The notes beneath the pieces were generated by a model. It ran no database searches. It was not told the DNA's origin and was given only the letters and a program-made list of their open reading frames with translations. A DNA stretch of 64,000 nucleotides, taken from assembly GCA_034003985.1 (NCBI GenBank), contig JAVEXP010000002.1:80789-144788 (forward strand), in the 5' to 3' direction. Position numbers and translations under genes: made by a program. Positions 31,977-55,098 of the stretch are shown here, piece after piece. Position 1 is the first letter of the stretch. Each line of letters begins with the position of its first letter. Origin of the DNA: Patescibacteria group bacterium (GTDB lineage: Bacteria > Patescibacteriota > Patescibacteriia > Buchananbacterales > UBA6539).

Positions 31977-31983
31977 TAATTAT

Positions 31984-32232
31984 ATGACTGAAGAAATAAA
32001 ACCCAATGCCATTTATACCACGGACGAGACGCAGAAATTTTTGAAAGTTAGTAACAGCACGATTAAGCGTTTGTTGAAAAAGGGACTAATCAGAGCCAAT
32101 AAGGTCGGCGGGCAATACCGGATTTTAGGCAAGGAAATTCTGAGATTAGTATCGCCGGAGTTGGAAGCCAAGGCCACACAGTCCTATTTGGGTGTCAAAA
32201 AGAAAGTCGTTGATAAAATAAATAAATGGTAA
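31984..32232 (+). CDS. Excisionase/MerR-family helix-turn-helix DNA-binding protein (second paralogue) heading the pse/decoration operon
   Basis: 83 aa from ATG 31984 (ORF-track TTG start at 31957 rejected); HTH TDETQKFLKVSNSTIKRLLKKGLIRANKVGGQYRI, similar to 11510..11797. Confidence 0.6.
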   Translation: MTEEIKPNAIYTTDETQKFLKVSNSTIKRLLKKGLIRANKVGGQYRILGKEILRLVSPELEAKATQSYLGVKKKVVDKINKW

Positions 32233-32235
32233 ATT

Positions 32236-34029: not shown

Positions 34030-34033
34030 CAAT

Positions 34034-36143: not shown

Positions 36144-36832
36144 AATCAATTGCTATTATTCCGGCCCGTGGTGGCAGCAAAAGGATACCTAATAAAAATA
36201 TTAAGGATTTTCTTGGTTATCCAATCATTAAATATGTCATTGAAACCGCTATTGATTCTAAATGTTTTGATGAAGTGATTGTTTCGACTGATAGTAAGAA
36301 AATAGCCAGCCTTGCCGAAAAATTCGGGGCTTCAGTCCCTTTTCTCAGATCACCCAAAAGTTCTAATGATCATGCCACTACGGCCGATGTTATCAGTGAA
36401 GTTATCGAAAATTATCGTAAGCGGAATAATAATTTTGATTTCTTCTGTTGCCTTTATCCCACCTCCATATTTGTGACTAGCCAACTATTAAATTCTGCTT
36501 TTGACCAGCTAAAAGGCGACGGTTTAGACGGCGTTATATCGGTTATGAAATATCGGCATCCTATTGAGCGGGCATTCAAGATTGATGATGGCAATTTATC
36601 GATGTTGTATCCGGAAAATGTTTTTGGTCGTACCCAGGATTTTGTCCCTAAATATCATGATGCTGGTCAATTCTACTTTATGAAAACGGATGCTTTTTTG
36701 CGGGAAAAGAAAATATTTACCTCTAATATTAGAGGTTTTGTATTGCCTTTCAGGTATGTCCAGGATATTGATACGGAAGAGGATTGGTATTTGGCCGAGC
36801 TGAAATATAATATTTTAAAAAATCAAAATTAA
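36140..36832 (+). CDS. pseF: CMP-nonulosonate synthetase, PseF/NeuA family (CTP_transf_3)
   Basis: N-terminus MKSIAIIPARGGSKRIPNKNIK typical of acylneuraminate/pseudaminate cytidylyltransferases. Confidence 0.7.
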   Translation: MKSIAIIPARGGSKRIPNKNIKDFLGYPIIKYVIETAIDSKCFDEVIVSTDSKKIASLAEKFGASVPFLRSPKSSNDHATTADVISEVIENYRKRNNNFDFFCCLYPTSIFVTSQLLNSAFDQLKGDGLDGVISVMKYRHPIERAFKIDDGNLSMLYPENVFGRTQDFVPKYHDAGQFYFMKTDAFLREKKIFTSNIRGFVLPFRYVQDIDTEEDWYLAELKYNILKNQN

Positions 36833-36869
36833 TTATTTACAACATCAATAGGCCTCAATTTTTAAGAAT

Positions 36870-37796
36870 ATGAATAATAAAATCAGGATTTTGATAATTG
36901 GCTTTGGATCAATCGGTAAGAGACATTATCGAAATTTATTTCAGGCCGGATATCAAGATATTGATTTTTATGATCCCAAGGTTATTAAATACGAAAATCG
37001 CATTAGTTTGCCGGAGGTCTCTAAAAAAATATTGGCAAACTATGGTGTCGTATTTATTTGTACGCCAGATAATCTTCACATTAAATATGCTTTGATGGCC
37101 GCTCAAGCTGGCTGTCATTTATTCATTGAAAAACCACTCTCGGACAGTTTAAAAAATGTTAAAAAACTCCGAAGTATTATTAAGCAAAAAAAGTTGATAT
37201 CGTTTGTAGCTTGTAATATGAGGTTTCATCCTTGCTTAATCAAGATGAAAGAGATGGTTAATCGCGGTAGCTTGGGAAAAATTTACAGCATTCGGAACGA
37301 ATTCGGCCACTATTTGCCAGCTTGGCGGCCTGGTGAGGATTATCAGTCTATCTATAAGAGCGGCATCATTTTAAATGACATGCATGAGTTTGATTTGCTT
37401 TTCTGGTTGAATAATTTTAAGTCGGTAAAATCAAAAACCAGAATATCTGGCAATGTCAGTAATTTGCGGGGAGTAGGTGAAGATCAGGCCGTTGTCAGTT
37501 TTGAATTTAATAATAAAGTTTTTGGAACGGTCCATTGTGATTATTTACAAAAGAAATATAGTCGATCTTGTAAAATTGTTGGCGAAAAGGGTAATTTAAA
37601 TTGGAATTTTGATGATAACATCGTTTGGCTGGAGAATGAAAAAGGCCGGAAGATGATGGCTCATTACAAGAGTTATAAAATTAATGAAAGCTATTTAAGA
37701 GAAATAAAGTATTTTATGGGTTGTGTTATTAATAACACCAAAACTTCCAATGATGTTATCAGGGCTACTGCAATATTAGAACATGTTTATGAATAA
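36870..37796 (+). CDS. Gfo/Idh/MocA-family NAD(P)-dependent oxidoreductase
   Basis: N-terminal Rossmann IRILIIGFGSIGKRH, ~308 aa, EKP motif (HLFIEKPLS). Confidence 0.6.
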   Translation: MNNKIRILIIGFGSIGKRHYRNLFQAGYQDIDFYDPKVIKYENRISLPEVSKKILANYGVVFICTPDNLHIKYALMAAQAGCHLFIEKPLSDSLKNVKKLRSIIKQKKLISFVACNMRFHPCLIKMKEMVNRGSLGKIYSIRNEFGHYLPAWRPGEDYQSIYKSGIILNDMHEFDLLFWLNNFKSVKSKTRISGNVSNLRGVGEDQAVVSFEFNNKVFGTVHCDYLQKKYSRSCKIVGEKGNLNWNFDDNIVWLENEKGRKMMAHYKSYKINESYLREIKYFMGCVINNTKTSNDVIRATAILEHVYE

Positions 37797-38535
37797 TCTT
37801 TGTATTATCCAAGCTCGAATGGGTTCCAGCCGTTTACCGGGCAAAATGTTGATGAGGTTGGGAGAATTTACGGTTATTGAATATCTCTTGAAGAGATTGG
37901 TTCGCAGTAAAAAAATTGATAAGATTGTTGTCGCAACCACTGATCAAAAAACCGATGACTCATTGGTTGACCTTCTTCAAAAGAATAAAGTTGAATTTTT
38001 TCGGGGTTCGGAAAATGATGTCCTTGATCGCTATTACCAATCTGCCTTGGGTTTTCCTGAATTTGATACGATTATTCGAATTACCGGCGATTGTCCATTA
38101 ATGGATCCTGAAATTGTTGATCAGGTGATAAGTTTTTTTGAAAATGGTGATTATGATTATGTTAATAATGTTGATCCCGAGCCCACATTTCCCGATGGCA
38201 TGGATGTTGAGGTATTTTCCAGAAATGCGCTTATTCAAGCGGCAGTAAACGCCACCAAAAAATCAGACCGCGAACATGTTACGCTTTATATTAGGAACAA
38301 TGAGTTATTTAAAAAAGGTTTTGTGTCTTCAGATATTGATTACTCGGGCTATCGTTTAACTCTTGATGAACCGCTTGATCTGGAAGTGATCAGGCATTTA
38401 GTTAATAATCTACCGCCAGACTCTAATTTTAAAGATTACCTTGAATTTTTAGACGCTAATCCGGAATACCAAAAAAACAATATTATCAGGCGCAATGAGG
38501 GTCTGGAAATATCATTAAAGAATGACCTAATCTAA
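37783..38535 (+). CDS. Second cytidylyltransferase of the CTP_transf_3 family (KdsB/SpsF-like)
   Basis: LCIIQARMGSSRLPGKMLMRLGEFTVIEY resembles the KdsB/SpsF N-terminal nucleotide-binding motif. Confidence 0.65.
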   Translation: MFMNNLCIIQARMGSSRLPGKMLMRLGEFTVIEYLLKRLVRSKKIDKIVVATTDQKTDDSLVDLLQKNKVEFFRGSENDVLDRYYQSALGFPEFDTIIRITGDCPLMDPEIVDQVISFFENGDYDYVNNVDPEPTFPDGMDVEVFSRNALIQAAVNATKKSDREHVTLYIRNNELFKKGFVSSDIDYSGYRLTLDEPLDLEVIRHLVNNLPPDSNFKDYLEFLDANPEYQKNNIIRRNEGLEISLKNDLI

Positions 38536-38544
38536 AATTAAAAT

Positions 38545-39834
38545 ATGAAAAATCGATATCAAAAAAGTAATCAGGCTTTTAAAAAGATTAATCGGTTGAT
38601 TCCGCTTGCTTCGCAGACCTTTAGTAAAAGCTATCTGCAATATGTTAAGGGTACGGCGCCATTATTTGTTAGTCGGGCTAAGGGTTGTCGTATTTGGGAT
38701 GTTGATGGAAATGAATATGTTGATATGATAAATTCTTTACTGGCTGTATCTTTGGGTTACAATCATCCATCGACTAATCGTGCCATTGCCAAACAGCTTA
38801 AGAAAGGAATCAGTTTTTCACTCGCTACTTTGTTGGAAGGCGAATTGGCTGAATTGTTGATTAAATATATACCAAGTGCGGAAATGGTAAGATTCGGCAA
38901 AAATGGTTCTGACGCTACTACCGGTGCTATCAGATTGGCCCGGGCAATCACTGGTCGGGAGGAAATCGCGGTTTGCGGTTTTCATGGTTGGCATGATTGG
39001 TATATTGGCAGTACTACCAGAAAACTCGGGGTGCCGAAGTCGACAGTTGAGTTAACTCATAAATTTGAATATAATAATCTCGAATCATTAGCTAAAATAT
39101 TCAAATCTCGCCGTAATAAAATTGCCGCGGTTATCATGGAGCCGATGAGTTATGAATGGCCAAAAGATAATTTCTTGGCCAAAGTTAAAAAATTAGCTCA
39201 TCAACACGGCGCGCTGTTGATATTTGATGAGGTTATAACCGGATTTCGTTTCGGTTTGGGCGGCGCTCAAAAATATTTTGAAGTTACGCCAGATCTTTCT
39301 TGTTTTGGCAAGTCAATGGCTAATGGCATGCCAATTTCCGCTTTGGTTGGAAAAAGACAATATATGAAAAGAGTCGAAGATATTTTTTATTCATTCACTT
39401 TCGGTGGTGAGAGTCTTTCACTGGCAGTTGCTATTGCCACCATCCAAGAGATGAAAAATAATAATTTTTCTAAAGTAATTGATCAAACCGGTAAATATCT
39501 AAAAATCGGCACTGAAAGAATAATTAAGAAACATGGCTTAATGGAAGTGGTTGAATTGAAAGGCGCTAATCACTGGCAGATTTTCTTTTTCCATGACCAC
39601 CGCGCTGCCAAAGCAATGGAAATAAAATCTTATGTCCAGGAAGAGTTGTTAGCCAGGGGAGTTTTATGGTATGGTCAGCATAACATCAGTTTTAGCCACC
39701 GACAAAAAGATTTAGATTTTGTTCTTAGTCATTATAATCAAGTATTTGAATTATTGAGCAATCAGTTGGCCAAAGGAGTTTTGTCCAAGGGTATTAAAAG
39801 TCGGATGATAACCGATATTTTTAAAGTTAGGTAA
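38545..39834 (+). CDS. Class III PLP aminotransferase (glutamate-1-semialdehyde aminomutase-like)
   Basis: DEVITGFRFGLGGAQKYFEVTPDLSCFGKSMANGMPISAL (PLP-Lys in FGK); 429 aa. Confidence 0.75.
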   Translation: MKNRYQKSNQAFKKINRLIPLASQTFSKSYLQYVKGTAPLFVSRAKGCRIWDVDGNEYVDMINSLLAVSLGYNHPSTNRAIAKQLKKGISFSLATLLEGELAELLIKYIPSAEMVRFGKNGSDATTGAIRLARAITGREEIAVCGFHGWHDWYIGSTTRKLGVPKSTVELTHKFEYNNLESLAKIFKSRRNKIAAVIMEPMSYEWPKDNFLAKVKKLAHQHGALLIFDEVITGFRFGLGGAQKYFEVTPDLSCFGKSMANGMPISALVGKRQYMKRVEDIFYSFTFGGESLSLAVAIATIQEMKNNNFSKVIDQTGKYLKIGTERIIKKHGLMEVVELKGANHWQIFFFHDHRAAKAMEIKSYVQEELLARGVLWYGQHNISFSHRQKDLDFVLSHYNQVFELLSNQLAKGVLSKGIKSRMITDIFKVR

Positions 39835-39836
39835 TC

Positions 39837-40487
39837 ATGTTGGATTTTATACCAATTAGAGCCGTTGCCGTTTTAGCCGGTGGAATTATTAAAGATAAAA
39901 ACGGCAAGTGGCATACCACTAATTTTGGTGAGCCAGGTGATCACGCCGGTGTAACCGGCGATCGCCTGAGAGTTGAAGCTGCCACTTATCTTTACTTTGA
40001 TGATCCGGAATTATTAATTATTGCTTCGGCCGGGAAGGGCCATCTGCAAAATGTTGCTGATGCGCCGATGTTGGCCGAAATTATTGCCGAAGAATTGATA
40101 GAAAATGGTGTAGCGTCTGATCATATTTTTAAAGAAGTGACTTCCAATAGTACCTATGAACAATTATTGGAAATTCAGCGGCTGTCGGCACAAAAAAATA
40201 TTAAAGAACTTGGAATAGTTTCTAATGAGTATCATTTGCCTCGCATTAAAGCGATGATTGATAATTTCAATCAGCTGGCTGATTTGAGAAATGATAGTGT
40301 TAAATTGATTTCCGCCGAAAAAGTTTTAATTGATCATGATCCAGACAAGTGGTCCAACCTGATTAGTCAAGCTTATAATAGTTCCGAAATGGTTGAACGG
40401 CTTGCCAAAGAAGAACAGGGGATTGCCGATATTGAAGTCGGCAAATATGAGTTTAGAGATTTAAACGACAGTAATAAAGTTATATGA
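39837..40487 (+). CDS. Hypothetical protein, DUF218/YdcF-like fold suspected
   Basis: AVAVLAGGIIKDKNGKW Rossmann-like start; in-operon. Confidence 0.45.
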   Translation: MLDFIPIRAVAVLAGGIIKDKNGKWHTTNFGEPGDHAGVTGDRLRVEAATYLYFDDPELLIIASAGKGHLQNVADAPMLAEIIAEELIENGVASDHIFKEVTSNSTYEQLLEIQRLSAQKNIKELGIVSNEYHLPRIKAMIDNFNQLADLRNDSVKLISAEKVLIDHDPDKWSNLISQAYNSSEMVERLAKEEQGIADIEVGKYEFRDLNDSNKVI

Positions 40488-41545
40488 TAAATAATTTAAT
40501 CATTCAATCCGCCAACAGTGAAATAAAAATTGGTCCTGGTAATCCAGTTTTTATTGTCGCGGAAATTTCAGCCAATCATAATCAGTCAATTGATTTGGCC
40601 AAAGGATTGATTGACGCGGCCGCTCAAGCCGGTGCTAATGCGGTGAAAATGCAGACTTATACTGCCGATACTATTACCATTGATTCGGACAAAGAATATT
40701 TTAAAATTACTGGCGGCAACTGGGCCGGTGAAACTTTGTACAGTCTTTATCAAAAAGCCTATACGCCGTGGGAGTGGCAGGCTGAATTAAAGACCTATGC
40801 CGAGGGCAAGGACCTGGTTTGGTTTTCCGCGCCTTTTGATCAAACCGCTGTTTCTTTTTTGGAAGGCTTGGGAGTTAGTCTTTATAAAATCGCCGGCTAT
40901 GAGTTTGCTGATTTGCCGTTATTGCAGGCGGTAGCCAAGACCGGCAAACCGGTGGTTGCATCAGCGGCCATGGCTTCAGTTGAAGACATCGCCTGGTCAA
41001 TTAAAATTTTGCGGGATAATGGCTGCAGCCACTTGGCTATTTTGCATTGTATTAATGCTTATCCGGCCAACCCCGAAGAAATGAATATCTCGACGATTAC
41101 TGATATTATCAATAGATTTGGAGTAGTGTCTGGTCTATCCGATCATTCATTAGGTGCCGAAGCGGCGGTGGCTGCAGTAGCCGCCGGCGCGTCAATTATT
41201 GAGAAACATATTATTATTTCCCGACAGTCAGACAGTCCGGATAAAGAATTTTCTTTGGAACCGGACGAATTTAAATCTTTGGTTAATGCTGTCAGAGAAA
41301 CAGAAAAAATTATTGGCCGGCCAAAGTATGGTGCTGGCCTCAGTGAACAGCCTAATGAGAAGTTTAAGCGATCCCTGTTTGTTGTTAAGGATATCAAGCG
41401 CGGTGAAACTTTTACTGAAGAAAATGTCCGTTCAATTCGTCCCGGCTATGGTTTGCCACCAAAATTTTTGCCGAAAATTATGGGTAAAAAAGCGGTTCAG
41501 GACATTGAACGAGGAACGCCTTTGAGTAACGACCTAATTGATTAA
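40484..41545 (+). CDS. pseI: Pseudaminic acid synthase (NeuB family with C-terminal SAF domain)
   Basis: VFIVAEISANHNQSIDLAKGLIDAAAQAGANAVKMQTY NeuB-type TIM-barrel start; C-terminal SAF (antifreeze-like) domain. Confidence 0.8.
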   Translation: MINNLIIQSANSEIKIGPGNPVFIVAEISANHNQSIDLAKGLIDAAAQAGANAVKMQTYTADTITIDSDKEYFKITGGNWAGETLYSLYQKAYTPWEWQAELKTYAEGKDLVWFSAPFDQTAVSFLEGLGVSLYKIAGYEFADLPLLQAVAKTGKPVVASAAMASVEDIAWSIKILRDNGCSHLAILHCINAYPANPEEMNISTITDIINRFGVVSGLSDHSLGAEAAVAAVAAGASIIEKHIIISRQSDSPDKEFSLEPDEFKSLVNAVRETEKIIGRPKYGAGLSEQPNEKFKRSLFVVKDIKRGETFTEENVRSIRPGYGLPPKFLPKIMGKKAVQDIERGTPLSNDLID

Positions 41546-42011
41546 TATTTTAGATATGACTGAAAATTATTTAGTCCGCCCGGTTGAGACCGATGACATT
41601 AAGCGAATTTGGGAAATTAGAAATCACGAAGATGTCAGAAAAGTTTCGGGCAGTTCGGACATTATCACTTTGGAAAATCATCTTAGTTGGTTTAACAAGA
41701 AATATTTTACCACTCGGCAAAATCTTTGTTATGTTTTAGCAAATAACAATCAGATTATTGGCTATTGTCGGTTTGATTACGATCCTGATAAAAATTATTA
41801 TGTTGTTTCGATTGCTGTTGATCCGGAATTTCATAGTCGGGGATTGGGTGGTATCTTGTTGGCTCAAAGCCTTAAAGAATTTGGTGGTCGCGGAGCTGTT
41901 TTGGCTCAAATCAAGAAACTTAATATTCCTTCAATTAAATTGTTTGAGAAAAATGGCTTTGTTTTGGATCATCAAGATCAAGAAAATTGGTATTTAATTT
42001 ATAATAATTAG
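41538..42011 (+). CDS. pseH: GNAT N-acetyltransferase, PseH-like
   Basis: 157 aa; acetyl-CoA motif region RGLGGILLAQSLKEFG; directly follows pseI. Confidence 0.6.
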   Translation: MINILDMTENYLVRPVETDDIKRIWEIRNHEDVRKVSGSSDIITLENHLSWFNKKYFTTRQNLCYVLANNNQIIGYCRFDYDPDKNYYVVSIAVDPEFHSRGLGGILLAQSLKEFGGRGAVLAQIKKLNIPSIKLFEKNGFVLDHQDQENWYLIYNN

Positions 42012-42012
42012 T

Positions 42013-43830
42013 TTGATTATGCAGGCATTAATTTTAGCCGCCGGCCAAGGCAACCGTTTAAAACCAATGACTGACAAAATCCCTAAGGGATTAGTTCAGG
42101 TAAACGGCATCCCAATTCTTGAAAATGATTTAAATATTCTATCAAAGAAAGGCATTGCCAAAACTTTTATTGTTGTTGGTTATCTTCAGGATGAAATTAA
42201 AAATCATTTTGGTTATGACTGGAACGGGATGAAAATTGAATATCTTGAAAATAAAATTTTTGATCAAACTAACAACATTTATTCTTTATGGTTGGCTAAA
42301 GATGTGTTGCATGATGATACTATCTTGATGGAATGCGACATTTTTTTTGAGGAAAAATTAATTGATATATTGATTTCTGAAAAACTTGAAGACCGGGTCG
42401 TGGTTGATCGATTCGAACCTTTTATGGATGGAACGGTAGTGACCATTAATGATCACAGCGAGATAACAAAATTGATAACTTCCGATGATCAAGGAGAAAA
42501 TTTTGATTTTTCCAATACTTACAAAACCGTCAACATCTATCTGTTTACTAAAGATTTTTTGGAAAAGTTTTTCGTTCCTAACCTTGATCTTTATGTCAGC
42601 ACCCAAGGTAAGAATAAATATTATGAATTAATCCTTTCAATATTCATCAATTTCCGTAACCCGGTTTTAAAAGCCGCTGTTATTTCTGGTGTTAAATGGA
42701 TGGAAGTAGATGATTTTAGTGATCTGCGCCGGGCGGAAATGATGTTTGCTAATCCCCAAACCAGACTGGACGCCGCCCTTAATACTCACGGTGGTTTTTG
42801 GCGTTATGATTTTATGGATTTTTCCTATCTTTATAATTGGTATTTTCCGCCCTTGTCGTTAATTAACGAAATCCGAGTAAATTTACCAAGTTTATTGGCC
42901 ATTTATCCATCGTCTCAAAATTCAGTTAGTCGGATCCTTTCCAATTGGTTGGGGATTGAAGATAAGTATTTAGCGACCGCCAATGGTTCATCCGAGATAA
43001 TAAATTATGTTACCAGGACTTTGGTTAAAAAAATGTTGATCCCGGTACCGACTTTTAATGAATATGAGAGACTGTTGACGGCCGAGCAGATAGTTAAGTT
43101 TGATACTTCTAAAAATAATTTTGATCTTGATGAACAGGAGGTTGTAGATTTGGCCAGGCGGGAAGGCTGTAATTCAATTGTTTTAGTTAATCCGAATAAT
43201 CCGACCGGTAAATTTATGCCCTTGGCTGAAATAAAAAGTTTGGTTAAAAAATTGAATTTTCTCGACTTAATAATCGTTGATGAATCTTTTATTGACTACA
43301 CTTCATTAGACAAAAGCCAAAGCATGCACTCGGTTTTCGGCGAATTTTCCAATTTATTGATTGTTAAGAGCATGGGTAAGGATTTGGGTTTATTAGGTTT
43401 GCGCTTAGGTTATGCTTTGTCGGCCAATATCGATTTGATTAATGAAATTAGAATTAATTTGCCAATTTGGAATGTCAACTCTATTGCTGAGTATACTTTA
43501 GAATCCTTAACTAAATATCGAAAGGAGTTTGTCAAATCAATTGCATTAATGAATGATGATCGTCAGTATTTGATGAACCAGCTGCAAAATGTGGGCGGAC
43601 TTGAACCAATCGAATCGTACACCAATTTTATCACCTGTCGGATTAAAGGGAATGTCTCCAGTACCGAGCTGCGCGATCAATTATTTCTAAAACATAATAT
43701 TTTTATCAAGGATTGTAGTAATAAAAGTGGTATGGCCGACCAGAAGTATGTTCGGTTTGGCGTTAGGAAGAAAGCCGATGTTGATTTGTTAATCAAAGCG
43801 CTTAAAAAAGAATTATCAGATGGAAAATAA
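42013..43830 (+). CDS. Bifunctional protein: N-terminal sugar/alcohol-phosphate nucleotidyltransferase (LicC/GlmU-N-like) fused to a C-terminal class I/II PLP enzyme (HisC/CobD-like decarboxylase/aminotransferase)
   Basis: N-terminus MQALILAAGQGNRLKPMTDKIPKGLVQVNGIPILE (G-x-G-x-R-L NTP-transferase motif); C-terminal ~350 aa with aminotransferase class I/II features (NPNNPTGKFM, SMGKDLGLLGLRLGY with the Lys expected to bind PLP). Confidence 0.7.
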   Translation: MIMQALILAAGQGNRLKPMTDKIPKGLVQVNGIPILENDLNILSKKGIAKTFIVVGYLQDEIKNHFGYDWNGMKIEYLENKIFDQTNNIYSLWLAKDVLHDDTILMECDIFFEEKLIDILISEKLEDRVVVDRFEPFMDGTVVTINDHSEITKLITSDDQGENFDFSNTYKTVNIYLFTKDFLEKFFVPNLDLYVSTQGKNKYYELILSIFINFRNPVLKAAVISGVKWMEVDDFSDLRRAEMMFANPQTRLDAALNTHGGFWRYDFMDFSYLYNWYFPPLSLINEIRVNLPSLLAIYPSSQNSVSRILSNWLGIEDKYLATANGSSEIINYVTRTLVKKMLIPVPTFNEYERLLTAEQIVKFDTSKNNFDLDEQEVVDLARREGCNSIVLVNPNNPTGKFMPLAEIKSLVKKLNFLDLIIVDESFIDYTSLDKSQSMHSVFGEFSNLLIVKSMGKDLGLLGLRLGYALSANIDLINEIRINLPIWNVNSIAEYTLESLTKYRKEFVKSIALMNDDRQYLMNQLQNVGGLEPIESYTNFITCRIKGNVSSTELRDQLFLKHNIFIKDCSNKSGMADQKYVRFGVRKKADVDLLIKALKKELSDGK

Positions 43831-44533
43831 TTGGCATAAAATTTGGGAGAAAAAGGGGAGTGTGGCTAAGACTGGACAGCCTAGTCTTGCCGATTTAATC
43901 GGTTATGATGGCTTTGATTCTAAGATTGGGCGGATTACTGAAGCCGAATGGCGAAAATATGTTTCGCAAACTATTGCTAAATTGAGGATTAGCAAAAATG
44001 ATAAAATTTTAGAAATTGGTTGTGGTGCCGGAGCATTTTTGTTGCCTTTATATGAGCAGGGTTATAATGTTGCTGGCTTGGATTACTCTCAGTCGTTATT
44101 GGACGCTGCCAAAAAAGTGCTCGTTGGGGCCAATTTGGTCTGTGGTCAAGCCAATAATTTGCCGTTTAAAAATGGTGAATTTGATGTGGTCATCAGTAAT
44201 AGCATTTTTCATTATCTACCAAGCATTGATTATGCCGCCAAGGTGCTTAATGAAATGTTTCGAGTTTTGAATCAATCTGGTCGAGCGGCAGTTTTGGATA
44301 TTAATGATCAGGCTAAACAAGATTTTGCCGAAGATTTAAGAAGAAAAGAAATTGGCAATAAAGAATATGAAGAAAAATATAAGGGGTTGGGTCAATTGTA
44401 TTATCCTAAGTCTTTTTTTGAAAACTTCGCTGAAGAGCATGATATTAAATTTGTTATTGAACCGCAAGTCATTGATGGCTATCAGAATTCTTTGTGGCGT
44501 TACAATTTTTATTTTTATAAATCATCATTATGA
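43820..44533 (+). CDS. Class I SAM-dependent methyltransferase
   Basis: Motif I ILEIGCGAGAFLL, motif post-I LDYS, motif II FDVVISNSIFHYL. Confidence 0.7.
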   Translation: MENNWHKIWEKKGSVAKTGQPSLADLIGYDGFDSKIGRITEAEWRKYVSQTIAKLRISKNDKILEIGCGAGAFLLPLYEQGYNVAGLDYSQSLLDAAKKVLVGANLVCGQANNLPFKNGEFDVVISNSIFHYLPSIDYAAKVLNEMFRVLNQSGRAAVLDINDQAKQDFAEDLRRKEIGNKEYEEKYKGLGQLYYPKSFFENFAEEHDIKFVIEPQVIDGYQNSLWRYNFYFYKSSL

Positions 44534-45222
44534 ATTTTAGGCTAAAAATCGTTCCGGTAAAAAATTTGGTGCTCCATGAAGATGCCGACCAAGCGCGTAT
44601 TGCGCGCTATATCAAGCTTTTTAAAGTTAGCGGCAAATTAATTGATCCGCCGGTTGTTAGTCCCTTGGCAGGTGGCAAGTTTTTAGTTTTGGATGGCGCT
44701 AATCGAACTTCAGTTTTTAAGGCGTTGGGTATTCCTCATATTGCCGTGCAGGTTGTAGACTATTTTTCTAACGAGGTTAATCTCAGTTCTTGGAATCATC
44801 TGATTTGCCATCAGGATTTTGTTTGTCAAAATAAAAAGAAAATTATTTTTAAAAAGAACCAGCTGGCTGAAATGTCGCAATTTGTTAAACAATACAATGG
44901 CAAATATCAAATTAATCGTCTTGACTATGACAATTCGGTTCGAATCAAAAAGGAATATGGTTCAAACTGCTGTTTGATTGTTTTCCCTAAGTTTACCAAA
45001 TCAGACATTTTTAAATTTGCTAAAACCAATCAGCATATTCCTTCTGGTATTACTCGGCATCTAGTTAATGGCCGAGTGCTTAATTTAAATCTTAATCTTA
45101 GTTTTTTAAAAAGCAAAACCAGTTTGGCTGGCAAGCAAAAGAAATTAGATGAGTTGATTAAACGCAAATTAAATAAACATAATATTAGGCATTATGTCGA
45201 ATCGGTTAATATCATTTATTGA
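44530..45222 (+). CDS. ParB/sulfiredoxin-like domain protein, unknown role
   Basis: KFLVLDGANRTSVFKALGIPHIAVQV resembles the ParB N-terminal domain/Srx fold (hDGhHR-like); 230 aa. Confidence 0.45.
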   Translation: MNFRLKIVPVKNLVLHEDADQARIARYIKLFKVSGKLIDPPVVSPLAGGKFLVLDGANRTSVFKALGIPHIAVQVVDYFSNEVNLSSWNHLICHQDFVCQNKKKIIFKKNQLAEMSQFVKQYNGKYQINRLDYDNSVRIKKEYGSNCCLIVFPKFTKSDIFKFAKTNQHIPSGITRHLVNGRVLNLNLNLSFLKSKTSLAGKQKKLDELIKRKLNKHNIRHYVESVNIIY

Positions 45223-45922
45223 GGAAAATATCATTAAATATTTGCTTTCATTATTAAGGATGATTTGGCATTTAATTAAAAAAATTAAACCTTATAAAAC
45301 GGTTTATTTTAACGATTTTAATGCCACGATGGCGATGCCCCTTGATGCTATCCAGGTGATGAAGAGTTGCACTGAGGCTTTAAATCAAGCGGGGATTAAT
45401 TATCATTTGAGTTGGGGCACTGCCTTGGGCCTTTATCGTGATGGTAAATTGATTGGCCATGACACTGATATTGATTGTGACATTATGAATCCCGACATTA
45501 ATCAGATTGATCAGGCTTTAAAGCAGGCTGGGATGGTTATTGGTAAAAAAATTTATTACGGTAAAAAAGTCCAGCAAGCAATTTATGTTTCCTCCGGCGG
45601 AGTGGTCTTTGATGTTTTGTGTTGGTATCGTCGCGGGCAATTTTGTTTTAATCGATGCGAAGAAGATTATATTTTGAGGATTTCTCGCAACTATTTTATT
45701 GGCCATGACACGGTAGTTTATGATGGTGTTAATTATAATGTTCCTAAGCCGATTGAAAAATATCTTGAGTTGTTGTATGGTTCAACTTGGAAAATACCCC
45801 AATCGGCCAAAGGTGACTGGAAAGAGGGCTGTCCAATTGTTTCTAAAAAGTTATCACCATTGAAAAAAATATATTCTAAATTATTGCCGTATTATTATAA
45901 ATATTTGAAAAAAAATGGATAA
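45194..45922 (+). CDS. LicD-family phosphotransferase (phosphocholine/phospho-alcohol transferase family)
   Basis: INYHLSWGTALGLYRDGKLIGHDTDIDCDIM matches the LicD core (GT(A/L)LG...R......D.D.D). Confidence 0.7.
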   Translation: MSNRLISFIEENIIKYLLSLLRMIWHLIKKIKPYKTVYFNDFNATMAMPLDAIQVMKSCTEALNQAGINYHLSWGTALGLYRDGKLIGHDTDIDCDIMNPDINQIDQALKQAGMVIGKKIYYGKKVQQAIYVSSGGVVFDVLCWYRRGQFCFNRCEEDYILRISRNYFIGHDTVVYDGVNYNVPKPIEKYLELLYGSTWKIPQSAKGDWKEGCPIVSKKLSPLKKIYSKLLPYYYKYLKKNG

Positions 45923-47471
45923 AATTACCTTAGAATTTATTGAACAAAATAAAAAATTTTGGCCAGCCCGGCAAAATTTTAATGGCAGCTTTTTACTCGA
46001 TTTAACCTTGGCGGATATCGAATATGTCAATGTCAGACTTGTTACCGCCAGGGCGTTCATGGATCTATATCAGGCTGAACCAATCGTTTTAATTTCCACT
46101 TCTAAAAATCAGAAGCTGATTGAATTAATCAAGAGTTATGGAATTAATAAGTTAATTTATCTAGATAGTATCAAACTCAATTATTGGACTAAGCTATTAT
46201 ATTTTGTTTTGGCAATTTTGAATTGGCTACCGCGCAAGACCAGGGCCAGTTTGTTGAAATTAAAATTTCGGGGAAACCGAATAGGCAATTTTGTTTATGA
46301 TACCTGCATTAACTCGACTGGCTGGGGGACAGTTAATCCTTGGAATACCCGTTATATTAAATTTCTTTATTATGCCTATTGTTTGTATCTTCGCTATGAG
46401 CGGATTTTTAAGCAATGTCATCCAAAATTTTATTTTGGGGTCGAACAGGCTTACATTTCTGGCGGCATTCCTTCGGCTGCAGCGATCGCTAATCAATTAG
46501 GTGTATTCTATGCCAAACTTGGCCCTAATCGGATTGTTTACAAAAGTTATAAGACCATTGCTGACCTGGATATTTATCCTGCTCATCCCAGCAAAGATGA
46601 TTTTGTGTATATCATGGAACAACAAAAATCACAAGCCCTTGAGTGGGCCAATAAGTATCTTGGAAATTTATTTTCCGGCAATGTCAATCCGGCTGATTGG
46701 AATGCCATTAATGCTTTTGGCAAAGCCAAATTGCTTGATCAAGAATTGTATAATAAATTATTTAAATCAGGGTACAAATATCGGGTTTTCATTTTCCCAC
46801 ATGTTACAGTTGATGCCCCTCATGGCTATGTCAACGGGATTTTTAACGATTATGAAGAATGGCTGGTTGAAACTTTAAAAATCGCTTCCCGCCGTCAGGA
46901 TGTTTTGTGGATTTTAAAACCGCACCCCAGTGAAAAGGCTTACCATGTCGAGAAAAAAGTTTCCGATATTTATCATCGGCAGTTTGCCCAATATAAAAAT
47001 ATAATTTTGTACCCGGAGAATACCTCAACCGCCAACTTGGTAAACGAAATCGACGCGATTGTCACTGTTCGGGGTACGGCAATCGGGGAATACAGTTCAA
47101 TGGGAATACCGGTTATTACCGCCGGTCAGAATATGTTTGAGCATGGCAATTTCACCATTTTGCCAAAAGATCGTCAGGATTATGAGCGAGTTTTGATGGC
47201 TACCGAATTTCAGAAACTGTCAGCCGAAAAGATCGATTGCGCCCGAATTAGTTTATACCTTTATTTGCAGTTTAATTCTACTCCAATGCCTTTATTTTCT
47301 GACATTATTTTTGATACTTCCAAGCCGGCTGGTGATCAAATTTATAGTCATTTGTTGAATAAATTAAGAGAAACTAAGGTGGAAGATCTTTGGTCTCAGG
47401 AATTTAAAAACTATCTTAACAATAAATTCTATGATGGATGGAATCAAAAAGATAATCCCGCCGCTGATTAA
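45915..47471 (+). CDS. Capsule_synth (KpsC/KpsS/LipA-like, beta-ulosonate transferase family) protein
   Basis: 518 aa; conserved ILKPHPSEK motif (KxHPxE signature of the KpsC/KpsS family) and preceding VFIFPHVTVDAPHG. Confidence 0.55.
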   Translation: MDKITLEFIEQNKKFWPARQNFNGSFLLDLTLADIEYVNVRLVTARAFMDLYQAEPIVLISTSKNQKLIELIKSYGINKLIYLDSIKLNYWTKLLYFVLAILNWLPRKTRASLLKLKFRGNRIGNFVYDTCINSTGWGTVNPWNTRYIKFLYYAYCLYLRYERIFKQCHPKFYFGVEQAYISGGIPSAAAIANQLGVFYAKLGPNRIVYKSYKTIADLDIYPAHPSKDDFVYIMEQQKSQALEWANKYLGNLFSGNVNPADWNAINAFGKAKLLDQELYNKLFKSGYKYRVFIFPHVTVDAPHGYVNGIFNDYEEWLVETLKIASRRQDVLWILKPHPSEKAYHVEKKVSDIYHRQFAQYKNIILYPENTSTANLVNEIDAIVTVRGTAIGEYSSMGIPVITAGQNMFEHGNFTILPKDRQDYERVLMATEFQKLSAEKIDCARISLYLYLQFNSTPMPLFSDIIFDTSKPAGDQIYSHLLNKLRETKVEDLWSQEFKNYLNNKFYDGWNQKDNPAAD

Positions 47472-48231
47472 GAAAATCATTAAACAGCAAATTTTTTTAA
47501 TCAGCAAATTTTTTATTGTTATTAAACTGGTCATCAGAAATCCTAAAAATTATTTTAACCTCACCAAAGAGGAAAAGAGATTATTCGCTGAGCCGTGGTA
47601 CAATGATTTTTCTGACTTAGGGATCAAGACCCAGCAACAAGATAAAAAAGACAAACTTAACCAGAATTGTAAACAAAAGATCATTTTTGGTTTGATTGGC
47701 CAGGCTTTGGACATTGCTGGAAAAGATTCTTTTGGTTTGGACCTTTTTTGTGCCAATGGTTTTTATGCCAATTATTCAGTCCGGCAGGGAGCAGTAAGAA
47801 TTGACGCTTTAGACCTTAATGAATATGAAATTAGCAAGGCTAAATTGATTACCAAGCTTTTGGGGAATTCCGAAAAAATTAATTTTTTGGTCAAAGATGT
47901 TTTTGAAAGCGCTGGCCCTTATGATTTTGCGATTTGCACCGGCGGACTTTATCATATTTCTAACCCCGATAGACTTTTGGTGGATCTTCGGCAGAAAGTG
48001 AAGAAAGCACTGATTATCCAGACAGTCTATTCCTTGGCTAACGAGGATAAAAATTATTTTGAAACCCCGGCTCCTGGCTGGACTTGGGGCTGTCGTTTTA
48101 GCCATAAATTTTTACTAAATATGGTCGAGTCAGCCGGATGGAATATTATCCATTCCGAAGTGAATGTGCTTCGCGGTAATCACAAACCGCAAAGCCAAGG
48201 CTCAGCCTATTTGTTGTGTGTTCCTAAGTAG
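47431..48231 (+). CDS. Putative SAM-dependent methyltransferase
   Basis: GLDLFCANGFYANYSV (motif I-like) ... FAICTGGLYHISNPDRLL; 266 aa; N-terminal boundary uncertain (41-nt overlap with upstream gene). Confidence 0.5.
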   Translation: MMDGIKKIIPPLIKKIIKQQIFLISKFFIVIKLVIRNPKNYFNLTKEEKRLFAEPWYNDFSDLGIKTQQQDKKDKLNQNCKQKIIFGLIGQALDIAGKDSFGLDLFCANGFYANYSVRQGAVRIDALDLNEYEISKAKLITKLLGNSEKINFLVKDVFESAGPYDFAICTGGLYHISNPDRLLVDLRQKVKKALIIQTVYSLANEDKNYFETPAPGWTWGCRFSHKFLLNMVESAGWNIIHSEVNVLRGNHKPQSQGSAYLLCVPK

Positions 48232-48233
48232 TT

Positions 48234-49019
48234 ATGAAACCAGTTGTCATCGCCGTACCATACTATAAAAATGAATTAAGCCCTGACGAGCAAATATCTT
48301 TGAATCATTTGGAAAAATATCTTGGGCGCTATGATATTTTTTTGGTTGCTCCCGATGGCTTGCAAATTAATTTGGAAAAATATCCGACCAAAAGATTTCC
48401 GGCTAAATATTTTAAAAGTACTAAATCTTATTCCAAATTATTGCTGTTGGAAAGATTCTATAAGCAGTTTAGCGATTACGAATATCTTTTGATTTACCAG
48501 CTTGATTGCTTGGTTTTTTCCGATCAATTGTTGGACTGGTGCCAGCGCGGTGATGATTATATCGGCGCTCCTTGGTTCAAGAGTCAGATGATTAAGCGGT
48601 ATGATTATCCCGATGCCTGCGGCAATGGCGGTTTTTCTTTACGCCGAATTGATAAGGCAATTGAGGTAATTGAAAAAAGCAAATTGCCGTTTTGGAAAAT
48701 TATCAGCCAAAGCTTTCAAACTATTGCCGAAATTCCGTCCTTAAATCCCAAATCAATTTTAAAAGCTATAAAATTGGCATGGAGTAAGTCTGCCGCCTGG
48801 CGAACATTATTAAACGAGGACCGTTATTGGTCTTTTGAAGCCCAAAAAATAGTTGCTGATTTCAAAATTCCGGATGTCGATACTGCTTTGCGGTTTGCTT
48901 TTGAAATCGGCCCTCGGTATTGTTTTGAACGCAATCATCGTCAGCTACCGTTTGGTTGTCACGGCTGGATGAAATATGATCGCAATTTTTGGCTGCCTTA
49001 TATAATAAAAAATAATTAA
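48234..49019 (+). CDS. Hypothetical protein
   Basis: 261-aa in-operon ORF; no confident motif. Confidence 0.45.
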
Positions 49020-52643: not shown

Positions 52644-55097
52644 ATGGAAGCCAGGCTATCCAATTATCTCCTTAAATTTTTGAAAATTGGGGTATTTGTG
52701 ACTCTATTTTTACCCTTAGTGATGAACAGCCATTTTTTCTTTCCCTTTATTGTTTTTAAAAATGTTTTATTCCATATTGCTGTTGAAGTGATGTTTGTGG
52801 CCTATTTATTTTTGGCCAGCATTAACCCTCGTTTTCGTCCCAGATTAGACAAACTCACCATTGCATTGGTGGCTTTTTTTGTCATTTATGTTATGGCGGG
52901 AATATTTGGTATTGGGATTTACAGTAGCTTCTGGGGTAATTACGAAAGAATGTCGGGAATTTTTCACATGTTTCACTTGGTCTTGTATTTTTTGGTGGTG
53001 GCCAATGTTTTTAAAGTCAAAGAAGATTGGCATGCCTTTTTTACTTTTTCAATTTTTGCCAGTTTGCTGATGAGTTTTTTGGGTCTGGCCCAATGGTTGA
53101 AAATTCCTTTTTTGCTGGAATCTTCCGGCGGCAGCCGGTTATCCGGAACAGTTGGTAATGCCACTTTTTTGGCCGCTTATCTGATTTTTAATTTATTTTT
53201 TATTTTATATTTTTGGGCCAAAGAGGAAAGATTCAATTTGAAGCTTTTCGCCGTCAGTTTTTTAAGTTTTGACATTTTTTTGGTTCTGAGTTCAATTTTA
53301 AACAAGCTATTTATTACCAGCGATTGGGGACTTTTAAATATTTTTAAAATTCCAATTTTGATTGAAGGTTTTGATTACCCTAAAATTTGGGTGGCTTATT
53401 TGGTATTTCAGGCTTTAATTCTGGCGGTTTGGCTGCTGCGAACCAAGATCAACGCCGTTCGAGTGTTGTTGTCGGCCATTCTGTTGTTGGATTTTTTCAT
53501 TTTTTTCAATACCCAGACCCGCGGCGCAATCATTGGTTTTGTTTTAGGGGTTGGATTTTTGGCCGTTGCCGGATTGGTCTTTAGCCGCGACAAAAAAATT
53601 AAAGCCGCTGTTGCCGGATTTTTATTATTGGCGGTGATTTCACCCTTTATTCTATTGGCCGCCAAAGATACCAGTTTTATCCAAAACAACGGCACTTTAA
53701 GCCGACTGGCCAATATTTCCAAATCGGATTTGACTACCGAGTCGCGCTTGTTGACCTGGCAGGCCAGTTGGCGAGGTTGGTCGGAAAACTCCAAATCTTT
53801 TTTGATTGGTTATGGTCCGGAAAATTATTACTATGCTTTTAACAAGTATTTCCCGACGGCTATTTACAAAGATGCCGGTTCACGGATTTGGTTTGATCGG
53901 GCCCATAATATTATTTTTGATATTGGAGTTACCACTGGCATTATCGGTTTGGTGAGCTATCTGAGCATTTTGGCTTTGGCCGCTTATTATCTGGTTGCCG
54001 CGTACCGTCAAGTTAAGGAAATTAGTTCCAGCTGGTTATTTGTCGGCTTGCTGATTGCCTATTTCATTCAGAATTTTTTTGTTTTTGATACGATTAATAC
54101 CGAGATCCCGTTCTTTTTGTTTTTAGGTTTTATTGTTTTTCAATATTTTGAGGCGTACTCATCTCAAAATTCGTCTGCCACGAATTATCGGGAGATAAAT
54201 TATATTTATCTTGCCACTTTGGCGGTGGTTTTATTGTTTGGCGTTTTGGCTGTCAATGTTCGGGTGCTTAAATCCAATAATTACATTTTTAAAGCCTTGA
54301 CTGGCAACGGCGATGTCCAAATCGCTTTTGATTATTTCAAACAGGCCATTGATCAATCTCTGACCGGTCGGTTTGAGGCTCGGCAACAAATCGCTGATTT
54401 TGCCAATCGGCTGTTGACCAACCAGAGCGTTAATAATAACAAAAAATCAGAGATTATTAGTTTTGCCGGTTTGGAACTGAAAAAAAGCATTGACGAAGAA
54501 CCACTGAATGTTCGCCATTACATTTTTTTGGCCAATTTTCGGAATTCCACGGCCGCGGCTAATATTCAAGCGGTTCAAGAGGCAGCTGATTTAATGTCTC
54601 AAGCCATTGAATTAAGTCCCAATAGACCTCATGTCTATTCCGAGTTGGCCAAGGCTGAAGTTTTGCTCGGTAATTTTGAAGCAGGGGAGAAGTGGTTTAA
54701 ACAGTCCGCCGCGCTGGCACCTTGGGTAATTGATGTTCACTGGAATTTGTTGACCGTTTATATCATGTTTGAAAAGTATGATTTGGCTGATGAATACATG
54801 GAGTACATGAAACAGGAGCTTGACTGGCAGCCTGGCGTTCAGGACTATGGCCGGTTGGTTGATTTGTACGCCCGCGTTAAAAATTACAACCGGATGCTTG
54901 AAGCTCAACTTTTAAAGATTGAAATTGAATCAACGGCCGATAACTATGCTCAGCTGGCCGCCATTCATGCCAAGCTTGGTCAAAACGAACAAGCCCGCCA
55001 GGCTACTCAAAGGGCTGTTGAAATAAACCCAGAATTTTCCGGTCAGGCCCAACAATTTTTACAACTTCTGGATCAGGGGGAATTATTAGATAAATAA
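52644..55097 (+). CDS. O-antigen ligase family (Wzy_C) polytopic membrane protein fused to a C-terminal TPR-repeat domain (WaaL/PglL/WsaB-like)
   Basis: 817 aa; >10 TM; large loop with FDRAHNIIFDIGVTTGIIGLVSY (Wzy_C AHN...G..G motif with the conserved His); C-terminal ~250 aa of TPR-like repeats. Confidence 0.75.
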   Translation: MEARLSNYLLKFLKIGVFVTLFLPLVMNSHFFFPFIVFKNVLFHIAVEVMFVAYLFLASINPRFRPRLDKLTIALVAFFVIYVMAGIFGIGIYSSFWGNYERMSGIFHMFHLVLYFLVVANVFKVKEDWHAFFTFSIFASLLMSFLGLAQWLKIPFLLESSGGSRLSGTVGNATFLAAYLIFNLFFILYFWAKEERFNLKLFAVSFLSFDIFLVLSSILNKLFITSDWGLLNIFKIPILIEGFDYPKIWVAYLVFQALILAVWLLRTKINAVRVLLSAILLLDFFIFFNTQTRGAIIGFVLGVGFLAVAGLVFSRDKKIKAAVAGFLLLAVISPFILLAAKDTSFIQNNGTLSRLANISKSDLTTESRLLTWQASWRGWSENSKSFLIGYGPENYYYAFNKYFPTAIYKDAGSRIWFDRAHNIIFDIGVTTGIIGLVSYLSILALAAYYLVAAYRQVKEISSSWLFVGLLIAYFIQNFFVFDTINTEIPFFLFLGFIVFQYFEAYSSQNSSATNYREINYIYLATLAVVLLFGVLAVNVRVLKSNNYIFKALTGNGDVQIAFDYFKQAIDQSLTGRFEARQQIADFANRLLTNQSVNNNKKSEIISFAGLELKKSIDEEPLNVRHYIFLANFRNSTAAANIQAVQEAADLMSQAIELSPNRPHVYSELAKAEVLLGNFEAGEKWFKQSAALAPWVIDVHWNLLTVYIMFEKYDLADEYMEYMKQELDWQPGVQDYGRLVDLYARVKNYNRMLEAQLLKIEIESTADNYAQLAAIHAKLGQNEQARQATQRAVEINPEFSGQAQQFLQLLDQGELLDK

Positions 55098-55098
55098 T

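Follow-up and report, generated by a model that had tools for sequence, protein, structure and literature searches.

A window of 64,000 nucleotides from the genome of a Patescibacteria group bacterium (GTDB lineage Patescibacteriota, Patescibacteriia, Buchananbacterales, UBA6539; assembly GCA_034003985.1, contig JAVEXP010000002.1, positions 80,789 to 144,788 of the forward strand) was analysed for a putative glycan-decoration operon; "the window" refers to this whole stretch. At 42013-47471, five open reading frames (ORFs) on the + strand follow each other with overlapping or abutting stops and starts. They encode a nucleotidyltransferase (NT) fused to a pyridoxal phosphate (PLP) enzyme, a class I S-adenosylmethionine (SAM) methyltransferase (MT1), a homologue of SbnI/SerK-type kinases, a LicD-family phosphotransferase and a KpsC-like protein (Table 1). 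This gene set, including the fused 605-aa protein, had been named in a preliminary description of the DNA and was found as described. The fused protein is 100% identical to a publicly annotated one (P0001, 603 aa) from a Patescibacteria metagenome-assembled genome (MAG), whose start is the ATG at 42019, two codons later. Long ORFs with the E-values given below are not a product of chance in DNA of ~35% GC. The five genes are the distal part of a co-directional array of ~27 kb (~22.8-50.1 kb), whose other products include GT4 glycosyltransferases, an ABC exporter and the enzymes of a pseudaminic acid (Pse) pathway. As argued here, free serine would be the starting point from which the operon, as a self-contained module, makes a zwitterionic phospho-amino-alcohol decoration.

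Table 1. Positions of the operon genes and adjoining genes in the window.
Feature	Position	Strand	Size	Remarks
CMP-pseudaminic acid genes (NCBIfam)	34034-42011	+		upstream of the fusion gene
NT-PLP fusion	42013-43830	+	605 aa	1-nt gap to the preceding gene
MT1 (class I SAM methyltransferase)	43820-44533	+	237 aa	11-nt overlap with the fusion gene
SbnI/SerK-type kinase homologue	44530-45222	+	230 aa	4-nt overlap with MT1
LicD-family phosphotransferase	45194-45922	+	242 aa	29-nt overlap with the kinase-like gene
KpsC-like GT-B protein	45915-47471	+	518 aa	8-nt overlap with LicD
MT2, second SAM methyltransferase (Methyltransf_23)	47431-48231	+		Pfam 2.8e-10; 41-nt overlap with the upstream gene
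DUF5672 protein	48234-49019	+		Pfam DUF5672 1.4e-51

The fused protein matches NTP_transferase/NTP_transf_3 (PF00483/PF12804) in Pfam at its N-terminus (residues 5-131, 8e-10 and 2e-7) and Aminotran_1_2 (PF00155) at its C-terminus (residues 312-596, 1.7e-27). Since alignments of the LicC and inositol-phosphate-cytidylyltransferase type reach ~residue 242 and those with CobD and 3FTB begin at 257-263, the domain boundary is placed at ~245-257. The protein carries a GQGNRLKP motif and, with K456, a lysine for PLP. In an alignment of 88 family members, the residues G11, R15, K25, E107, D109, K171, T172, N174, E205, E231, D233, D237, N324, D423, K456, R464 and R581 are invariant (88/88), also in a homologue from a Streptomyces locus discussed below. 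The same alignment shows T86, N87, N88, S91 and L92 to be invariant, while G13 is a glycine in 87/88 sequences. Among solved structures, the NT domain is closest to LicC (1JYK, 1.5e-16) and also matches PntC (6PD1, the Treponema denticola PntC fusion, 3e-9), whereas hexose-1-phosphate nucleotidyltransferases score 1e-6 or weaker. Its GxGxRL...K signature aligns with LicC, and it carries the LicC-type motif NN[IF]YSL[WY]. Specificity for hexose-1-phosphates, which had been put forward as an observation that would overturn the proposed function, is unlikely given this motif and the CDP-alcohol phosphotransferases that neighbour the gene in many genomes; the strongest NCBIfam matches of the domain do belong to sugar-1-phosphate families, but lie far below the cut-offs (AglF 1.8e-26, archaeal GlmU 3.8e-25). 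E107 aligns with PntC E104, where LicC has the smaller Asp (D105), a correspondence that is a hint only, as it is taken from pairwise HMMER alignments. In LicC, the small Asp faces the amine and leaves space for trimethylammonium. PntC E104 hydrogen-bonds the primary amine.

The best solved match of the PLP domain is 6OUX (1.4e-38), an entry named "threonine phosphate decarboxylase-like enzyme". This molecule name equals the annotation of SMUL_1544, whose product 6OUX probably is. SMUL_1544 is said to govern norcobamide biosynthesis, and its product is reportedly an L-serine-O-phosphate decarboxylase. In NCBIfam, the best model for the domain is CobD (TIGR01140; 3.3e-51, 174.4 bits), the L-threonine-O-3-phosphate decarboxylase, followed by HisC (TIGR01141; 1.7e-44, 152.1 bits); both scores are below the respective cut-offs of 290.55 and 276.55 bits. 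The rank of CobD would fit a pathway in which L-threonine is phosphorylated and converted by the fusion into CDP-(R)-1-aminopropan-2-ol, which is then methylated and transferred. This CobD-like chemistry, cited as background in the preliminary description, is improbable, and less likely than serine chemistry: the CobD score is well below its cut-off, 6OUX is the best solved match and is probably the product of SMUL_1544, reportedly specific for Ser-P, SerK takes serine and not threonine, SbnI is described as a serine kinase, and the substrate of the related enzyme FrbH has no beta-methyl group. Moreover, cob/cbi genes were found neither in the window nor among the top neighbour clusters of 80 fusion loci.

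The closeness of the HisC and CobD scores, together with the HisC annotation of several top PDB matches, raises the question of whether the PLP domain is an aminotransferase of the Cj1437/HisC type. Such an enzyme could, for example, form serinol phosphate from dihydroxyacetone phosphate for CDP activation and LicD- or TagF-like transfer. The TagF-like proteins found near many fusion genes use glycerol-phosphate-like donors, and T. denticola PntC is fused to an aminotransferase. This assignment would leave the putative serine kinase of the operon without a role, the homologous FrbH architecture is that of a decarboxylase, and the histidine-operon context expected of a genuine HisC, which had been named as a possible refutation, did not materialise: neither his nor cob context was found at the 80 fusion loci. 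A HisH/HisF-like pair at the Magasanikbacteria locus L081 was considered as such a context and rejected, as it belongs to a WbuX/Y/Z acetamidino set. An aminotransferase is accordingly regarded as very improbable. The 605-aa protein is best described, as judged from sequence comparison, as a putative bifunctional FrbH-type enzyme that combines a LicC-like cytidylyltransferase (~1-245) with a CobD/SMUL_1544-like fold-type I PLP enzyme (~257-605). The chemistry proposed for it is the conversion of CTP and O-phospho-L-serine to CDP-serine, and of CDP-serine to CDP-ethanolamine and CO2.

To our knowledge, FrbH is the only studied member of this fusion family. It acts in FR-900098 biosynthesis in Streptomyces rubellomurinus and is a characterised fusion of a cytidylyltransferase with a PLP decarboxylase, which cytidylylates 2-amino-4-phosphonobutyrate first and then decarboxylates the CMP conjugate (PMC8976061). 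The substrate is the C-P isostere of O-phosphoserine. The earlier belief that no such fused enzyme had been characterised was thus wrong, all the more as an FrbH-like locus falls into the same family. In this locus (L055, Streptomyces sp. NPDC001568), which adjoins nonribosomal peptide synthetase genes, the fusion is accompanied by a flavin oxidoreductase resembling FrbG and an Antibiotic_NAT acetyltransferase resembling FrbF. Its fusion protein is a full-length homologue of the window protein (35% identity over residues 4-585) and shares all invariant residues. Read from this locus and not from FrbH's own sequence, FrbH, which has the same order of an N-terminal cytidylyltransferase and a C-terminal PLP decarboxylase, probably belongs to the same family as the window fusion. 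As a separate observation, the phosphoenolpyruvate (PEP) mutase motif was not found within 10 kb of the Streptomyces genes (L055:8607-14301). CDP-ethanolamine could be the precursor from which these genes produce an analogue of FR-900098 or fosmidomycin with a phosphate ester. Fosfoxacin is an example of such an analogue, and FrbF and FrbG are known to tailor CMP-linked intermediates.

FrbH itself serves a phosphonate antibiotic pathway that includes PEP mutase, whereas the window enzyme lies in a surface-glycan operon with LicD and presumably acts on a phosphate ester. Phosphonate tailoring, in which a C-P amino acid such as phosphonoalanine would be converted to CMP-2-aminoethylphosphonate, might be expected from the fact that the characterised fused relatives are FrbH and PntC, and a homologue of MT1 occurs in a PEP-mutase cluster. 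The motif EDKxxxxxNS of PEP mutase is, however, absent from the window and from the 10 kb around each of the 80 loci, and no PEP_mutase family is among the 25 of 51 families listed for 23 further ORFs of the window. A phosphonate role was rejected on the missing motif and is given hardly any probability.

Bacterial and archaeal species-representative genomes that encode a member of the fusion family number at least 593, ranging over Bacteroidales, Treponema, Clostridia, Chloroflexota, Myxococcota, Planctomycetota, Actinomycetota, Nano-, Bathy- and Aenigmatarchaeota, Thermoplasmata and Asgard archaea. For 80 loci, the neighbours within five genes of the fusion were clustered and annotated. The commonest neighbour is LicD (33/80 loci, usually at position +1 or +2), and TagF-like Glyphos_transf proteins (12/80, usually at -1 or -2) and CDP-OH_P_transf proteins (7/80, usually at +1) also occur. 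At least one of the three is present in 52/80 loci (65%), and in 32/48 of those with at least 5 kb on both sides. LicD, TagF-like and CDP-OH_P_transf enzymes all use CDP-alcohol donors, and this association is the strongest comparative evidence for a CDP-activated phospho-alcohol as the product of the fusion. Glycosyltransferases, initiating sugar transferases and flippases also occur among the neighbours. Only the association with CDP-alcohol transferases and a recurring pairing with MT1 hold generally. Contrary to expectation, the whole gene set of the window is not conserved around the fusion, the KpsC-like gene being found in 0/80 and DUF5672 in 1/80 loci. A similar arrangement is seen in the Magasanikbacteria relative (L081), in which a block of fusion, MT1, LicD, KpsC-like gene and DUF5672 follows a nonulosonate cluster. 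DUF5672 holds the same position there as in the window, is also present in the syntenic locus L089 and thus follows the LicD/KpsC-like pair as a conserved partner in relatives from the candidate phyla radiation (CPR).

Several further gene associations were noted at the fusion loci. Opine-type genes adjoin the fusion in 16 loci, 15 from Bacteroidales and one from an Elusimicrobiaceae MAG (L063). They encode the opine-dehydrogenase-type Octopine_DH (L030, L033, L040, L042, L052, L063, L064, L069, L073) or the ornithine-cyclodeaminase-type OCD_Mu_crystallin (L032, L039, L042, L043, L051, L053, L054, L078), with both types in L042, and mostly occupy position +1 after the fusion (+2 or -1 in one locus each). 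This arrangement suggests that the amino-alcohol head group may be reductively N-carboxyalkylated instead of N-methylated; Proteus O-antigens contain N-(1-carboxyethyl)ethanolamine phosphate. A protein of ~912 aa with a YidC-like 60KD_IMP and a weak sulfatase/LtaS-like domain accompanies the fusion in 12 loci, mostly two genes upstream. Eleven of these are from Treponema/Spirochaetes (L016, L026, L028, L029, L031, L034, L035, L037, L038, L047, L074) and one is the Elusimicrobiaceae locus L063, and a TagF-like protein is present in 8/12 of them. In Promethearchaeota (Asgard archaea; L083/L084:2319-10893), genes for a TagF-like phosphotransferase, a sulfotransferase, an ATP sulfurylase and an adenosine phosphosulfate (APS) kinase surround the fusion, which suggests a glycan that is both sulfated and modified with a phospho-amino-alcohol.

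A source of the phosphorylated amino acid is indicated by the 230-aa protein encoded after MT1. It has no Pfam match, and its NCBIfam matches are SbnI (4e-23) and SerK (3.5e-12). Crystal structures of SbnI in the PDB align with both of its domains (4e-13). For its AlphaFold2 model (pLDDT 93.9), the top nine Foldseek matches, all full-length, are SbnI (TM 0.80) and SerK (TM ~0.65); the similarity to ParB, Noc and sulfiredoxin proteins is limited to the N-terminal ~80 residues. E17 and D55, aligned to SbnI E20 and D58, and a PSGITR...GR motif are invariant in 16 family members, and the LHE and DG..R motifs are kept. SbnI E20, its SerK counterpart E30 and SbnI D58 are, presumably, catalytic residues, and the PDB entry names of SerK E30 mutants agree with this role of the glutamate. 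SerK phosphorylates free L-serine and accepts neither threonine nor homoserine (PMC5120207). Given the homology and the serine specificity of SerK, the 230-aa protein, as a predicted full-length homologue of the free-serine kinases, would plausibly supply O-phospho-L-serine, the missing first step. Compared with SbnI and SerK, to which it is 19-22% identical, the window homologue is proposed to feed glycan decoration instead of siderophore or cysteine synthesis, and no HTH (helix-turn-helix) or heme-regulatory role can be inferred for it. Within the fusion module, the kinase is confined to a narrow lineage, comprising P0121-P0123 and the syntenic, frameshifted locus L089, and it is absent from L081. 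It is reasonable to suppose that most organisms take phosphoserine from SerA/SerC, while a metabolically reduced CPR lineage must phosphorylate scavenged serine. Kinase homologues of ~40% identity were also observed in conserved clusters of other Patescibacteria (L085:343-12342, L086:867-11003, L090:572-7437), with 2-5 paralogous "PEP-utilizers" proteins, a NicX/Peptidase_M29 gene and, in addition, PPDK_N (L085, L086) or a His_Phos_1 phosphatase (L090).

The methyltransferase MT1 has a class I SAM core (Methyltransf_11, Pfam 1.9e-21). Searched against the PDB, the profile of its family matches best the plant enzymes PMT2 (5WP5, 1.5e-16) and PMT1 (7e-15), whose structures are those of phosphoethanolamine and phosphomethylethanolamine N-methyltransferases. 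MT1 orthologues immediately follow the fusion gene in Solidesulfovibrio (L004), Clostridium sp. Marseille-P2415 (L045), Clostridia MAGs (L072, L080), Magasanikbacteria (L081) and L091, and another is close to it in a Bathyarchaeota MAG (L002), so that the pair recurs across Patescibacteria, Desulfobacterota, Clostridia and Bathyarchaeota. In addition, three divergent proteins from at least three lineages (P0009, P0188, P0215) are independent triple fusions of the NT, PLP and MT1 domains. Sampling of four MT1-family members from the methyltransferase side placed one after the fusion, one after a stand-alone LicC-like nucleotidyltransferase and one after a CTP_transf_like gene in a PEP_mutase/Ppd cluster. 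The last of these clusters (L093:38-3418) joins the MT1-family gene to genes for a PEP_mutase, a phosphonopyruvate decarboxylase and a CTP_transf_like protein, has another small methyltransferase gene behind them, and is a candidate route to N-methylated 2-aminoethylphosphonate head groups. As far as these comparisons go, MT1 is very probably a head-group methyltransferase of the pathway. It belongs to a distinct family and is not a canonical PMT: the PMTs of plants, nematodes and Plasmodium share the class I SAM fold and the proposed ethanolamine-phosphate head-group substrate, whereas MT1 is ~230 aa long and genomically tied to cytidylyltransferases. For the second methyltransferase of the operon, MT2, a counterpart is absent from L081 and from the 80 loci, which makes it lineage-specific. 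Further methylation of the head group and O-methylation of a sugar are possible roles. When P0178, which joins two methyltransferases in one protein, was checked for a link between MT2 and MT1, the similarity seen was of a generic kind only (E 2e-4).

The point at which methylation takes place bears on the order of the whole pathway. The preliminary description had suggested that the amino acid phosphate is decarboxylated, methylated and only then CDP-activated, which corresponds to a Lic/PMT-type pathway in which free phosphoserine would be converted to phosphoethanolamine and trimethylated phosphocholine, activated to CDP-choline and transferred by LicD, as a choline-independent route to phosphocholine. 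For such an order speak the Campylobacter jejuni enzyme Cj1436, which decarboxylates free L-serine phosphate to ethanolamine phosphate for capsule modification (PMC11800397), the LicC and PMT structures as best solved matches of the NT domain and the MT1 profile, the classical role of LicD as a phosphocholine transferase and the second methyltransferase in the operon. Nevertheless, this order is disfavoured and regarded as rather unlikely. FrbH sets a precedent for cytidylylation before decarboxylation. Most members of the family have no methyltransferase, and when the 88-sequence alignment was searched for specificity positions, no column separated the methyltransferase-linked fusions from those without; the NT pocket is identical in both, and thus no remodelling for a trimethylammonium group is visible. 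Together with the alignment of E107 to PntC E104, this argues that the NT domain takes an unmethylated substrate and that methylation would follow activation. The "phosphocholine-like" product of the earlier proposal is likewise unproven, given a Tyr in MT1 at the PMT His position and a Glu in the NT domain where LicC has Asp.

The final transfer is assigned to the LicD protein (PF04991; 31.5 bits, Pfam cut-off 22.6). It aligns with the catalytic segment of FKRP, in which the DxDxD motif is kept ("HDTDIDCD" compared with "WDYDVDLG" in FKRP), and its best NCBIfam match is the Mf1 cholinephosphotransferase (6e-13). Mf1 transfers both phosphocholine and phosphoethanolamine from CDP-choline and CDP-ethanolamine (PMC11982090). 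As proposed from this similarity, LicD would move the phospho-amino-alcohol from its CDP donor to a glycan hydroxyl. The KpsC-like protein barely passes the Capsule_synth cut-off (PF05159; 21.2 bits, cut-off 20). It has a KpsC-like GT-B fold with the HP motif, present as "LKPHPSE", and K335, H337 and P338 are invariant in its family. A search of 5.8 billion clustered proteins gave only 9 homologues at E <= 1e-5, which makes the family extremely small; one of the homologues is a longer form (P0158, 745 aa). KpsC, KpsS and WbbB are beta-Kdo transferases (GT99/GT107, Capsule_synth), whereas the window protein has ~12% identity to them and no CMP-Kdo context, and the CMP-sugar of the locus is pseudaminic acid. 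Because the locus encodes the synthesis of CMP-Pse and not of CMP-Kdo, the natural inference is that the protein acts as a CMP-pseudaminic-acid transferase; a TagF-like CDP-alcohol phosphotransferase is the alternative.

The upstream genes are co-directional with gaps of <=37 nt and encode PseB, PseC, PseF, a GFO oxidoreductase, a second CTP_transf_3 protein, an aminotransferase resembling glutamate-1-semialdehyde (GSA) aminomutase, DUF218, PseI and a PseH-like GNAT protein. PseB (446 bits), PseC (439), PseF (286) and PseI (451) score above the curated NCBIfam cut-offs, which justifies the earlier mention of a nonulosonate-containing glycan. The predicted role of these genes is to make the nonulosonate of the decorated glycan. 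PseG was not recognised among them. Within the set, the stretch 36870-40487 holds the GFO/IDH/MocA oxidoreductase, the second CTP_transf_3 cytidylyltransferase, the aminotransferase (386 bits, under its cut-off) and DUF218, which may provide a modified nonulosonate route or a second activated sugar. The G+C content is 0.35-0.40 in 30001-48000, the glycan-decoration part of the window, compared with 0.40-0.47 in the first 18 kb and at 54-62 kb; surface-glycan loci that vary or are exchanged horizontally typically show such a lower value. On either side of the cluster, at 13742-21622 and 52644-57363, lie further surface-related genes, namely an unassigned ORF of 1232 aa, two PMT_2 (ArnT/PMT-like) glycosyltransferases, a Wzy_C/O-antigen-ligase-like protein with TPR (tetratricopeptide) repeats and a subtilase with FG-GAP repeats.

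Taken together, a pathway can be proposed that builds on computed domain identities, catalytic-residue conservation, folds, gene order and associations between genomes, and for which we infer every substrate, the order of cytidylylation, decarboxylation and methylation, the number of methyl groups and the acceptor. First, the SbnI/SerK-type kinase would convert L-serine with ATP or ADP to O-phospho-L-serine. Next, the LicC-like N-terminal domain of the fusion would use CTP to form CDP-L-serine, which the PLP domain, with Lys456, would decarboxylate to CDP-ethanolamine, as in the order of FrbH. MT1, possibly with MT2, would then add one to three N-methyl groups to the head group, which is probably still CMP-linked at that stage. 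Finally, LicD would place phospho-(N-methyl)ethanolamine on a hydroxyl of the surface glycan, to which the KpsC-like GT-B enzyme would add pseudaminic acid from the CMP-Pse of the upstream genes. This sequence of steps, with transfer onto a Pse-bearing glycan, is considered the probable one, though by a modest degree of confidence. For its PLP step also speaks Cj1436, since it shows the conversion of L-Ser-P to ethanolamine phosphate at work in a capsule locus. The core of the earlier proposal, a de novo route from a phospho-amino acid through a CDP-phospho-amino-alcohol and LicD to a glycan with pseudaminic acid, remains plausible in light of the kinase homologue, the 6OUX match, the transferase neighbours at 65% of the loci and the MT1 fusions.

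Several observations weigh against this pathway. The PLP domain falls under the cut-offs of both CobD and HisC, and sequence alone cannot separate a decarboxylase from an aminotransferase here. Cj1436 and, reportedly, SMUL_1544, the closest solved relative, act on free Ser-P, so that the opposite order of steps is possible. The link to FrbH is drawn through an FrbH-like locus and not through the authentic FrbH sequence. The kinase homologue reaches 82.1 bits for SbnI and 46 bits for SerK, compared with equivalog cut-offs of 350 and 380. It is absent from 80/80 other fusion loci and is thus not a core part of the pathway, and its relatives at ~40% identity belong to CPR clusters of an unrelated kind, in which PEP-utilizer domains abound, from which it follows that the kinase family is not dedicated to this pathway. 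MT1 resembles the PMTs mainly in the SAM-binding core, and an invariant Tyr132 stands in place of the catalytic His of the PMTs ("SRDxILH" segment); this His is part of a Tyr/His dyad which we take to be catalytic, as in the PfPMT structures. In addition, the remaining one of the four sampled MT1 homologues adjoins an unrelated Mur-ligase protein.

The proposed pathway resembles known systems in parts. Like Lic-1 (LicA/LicB/LicC/LicD), it combines a LicC-like cytidylyltransferase with LicD to put a zwitterionic phosphodiester on a surface glycan. In contrast to Lic-1, no choline transporter or kinase was found, the head group would be made de novo from an amino acid, and the product is probably not, or not only, choline. 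SMUL_1544 and Cj1436 are CobD-family PLP enzymes like the C-terminal domain, but both are stand-alone proteins whose products are used as an amide or in the nucleotide loop of a cobamide, and not as the CDP-activated phosphodiester donor proposed for the window. All components are of known kinds: FrbH, LicC/LicD, Ser-P decarboxylases, SbnI/SerK, PMT-like methyltransferases and KpsC-like glycosyltransferases. What appears to be new is their combination into a serine-fed, CDP-level route to a (methylated) ethanolamine-phosphate decoration of glycans. Also new is the size of the family of FrbH-like enzymes, which extends over both bacteria and archaea, and its link to surface glycans. The bacterial pathways to phosphocholine given in a 2023 survey are confined to Lic-1 (choline uptake), PmtA, Pcs and acylation-dependent routes (PMC10434233). 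The literature searched contained no description of a route from phosphoserine to CDP-ethanolamine via CDP-serine, no phosphoserine-decarboxylating or cytidylylating enzyme in glycan loci and, apart from Mf1, no bacterial use of CDP-ethanolamine with LicD.

If the proposed pathway is correct, a soluble, serine-based route would represent a new source of head groups beside choline uptake (Lic-1) and phospholipid head groups. Phosphoethanolamine and phosphocholine decorations govern how C-reactive protein (CRP), TEPC-15-type antibodies and antimicrobial peptides see microbial surfaces. The route would explain decorations made without choline or ethanolamine in CPR bacteria, DPANN or Asgard archaea, with their minimal metabolism, and in many gut Bacteroidales, Treponema and Clostridia, and would assign a role to the fusion family, with its at least 593 species genomes. 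Cultured carriers of the fusion include Clostridium sp. Marseille-P2415, Herbinix hemicellulosilytica and Bacteroides sp. 224. The family would also be the likely primary-metabolic ancestor of the antibiotic enzyme FrbH, and tailoring at the CDP level, by N-methylation or opine-type carboxyalkylation, would emerge as a general means of head-group diversification. A bolder and only tentative extension holds that the FrbH-like family is the prokaryotic route from phosphoserine through CDP-serine to CDP-ethanolamine, with MT1, with or without MT2, leading on to CDP-choline in the CPR operon. If this were true, the family would decorate glycans, teichoic-acid-like polymers and, where CDP-OH_P_transf adjoins, perhaps lipids, and the operon would encode the first choline-independent, non-lipid pathway to phosphocholine-decorated bacterial glycans.

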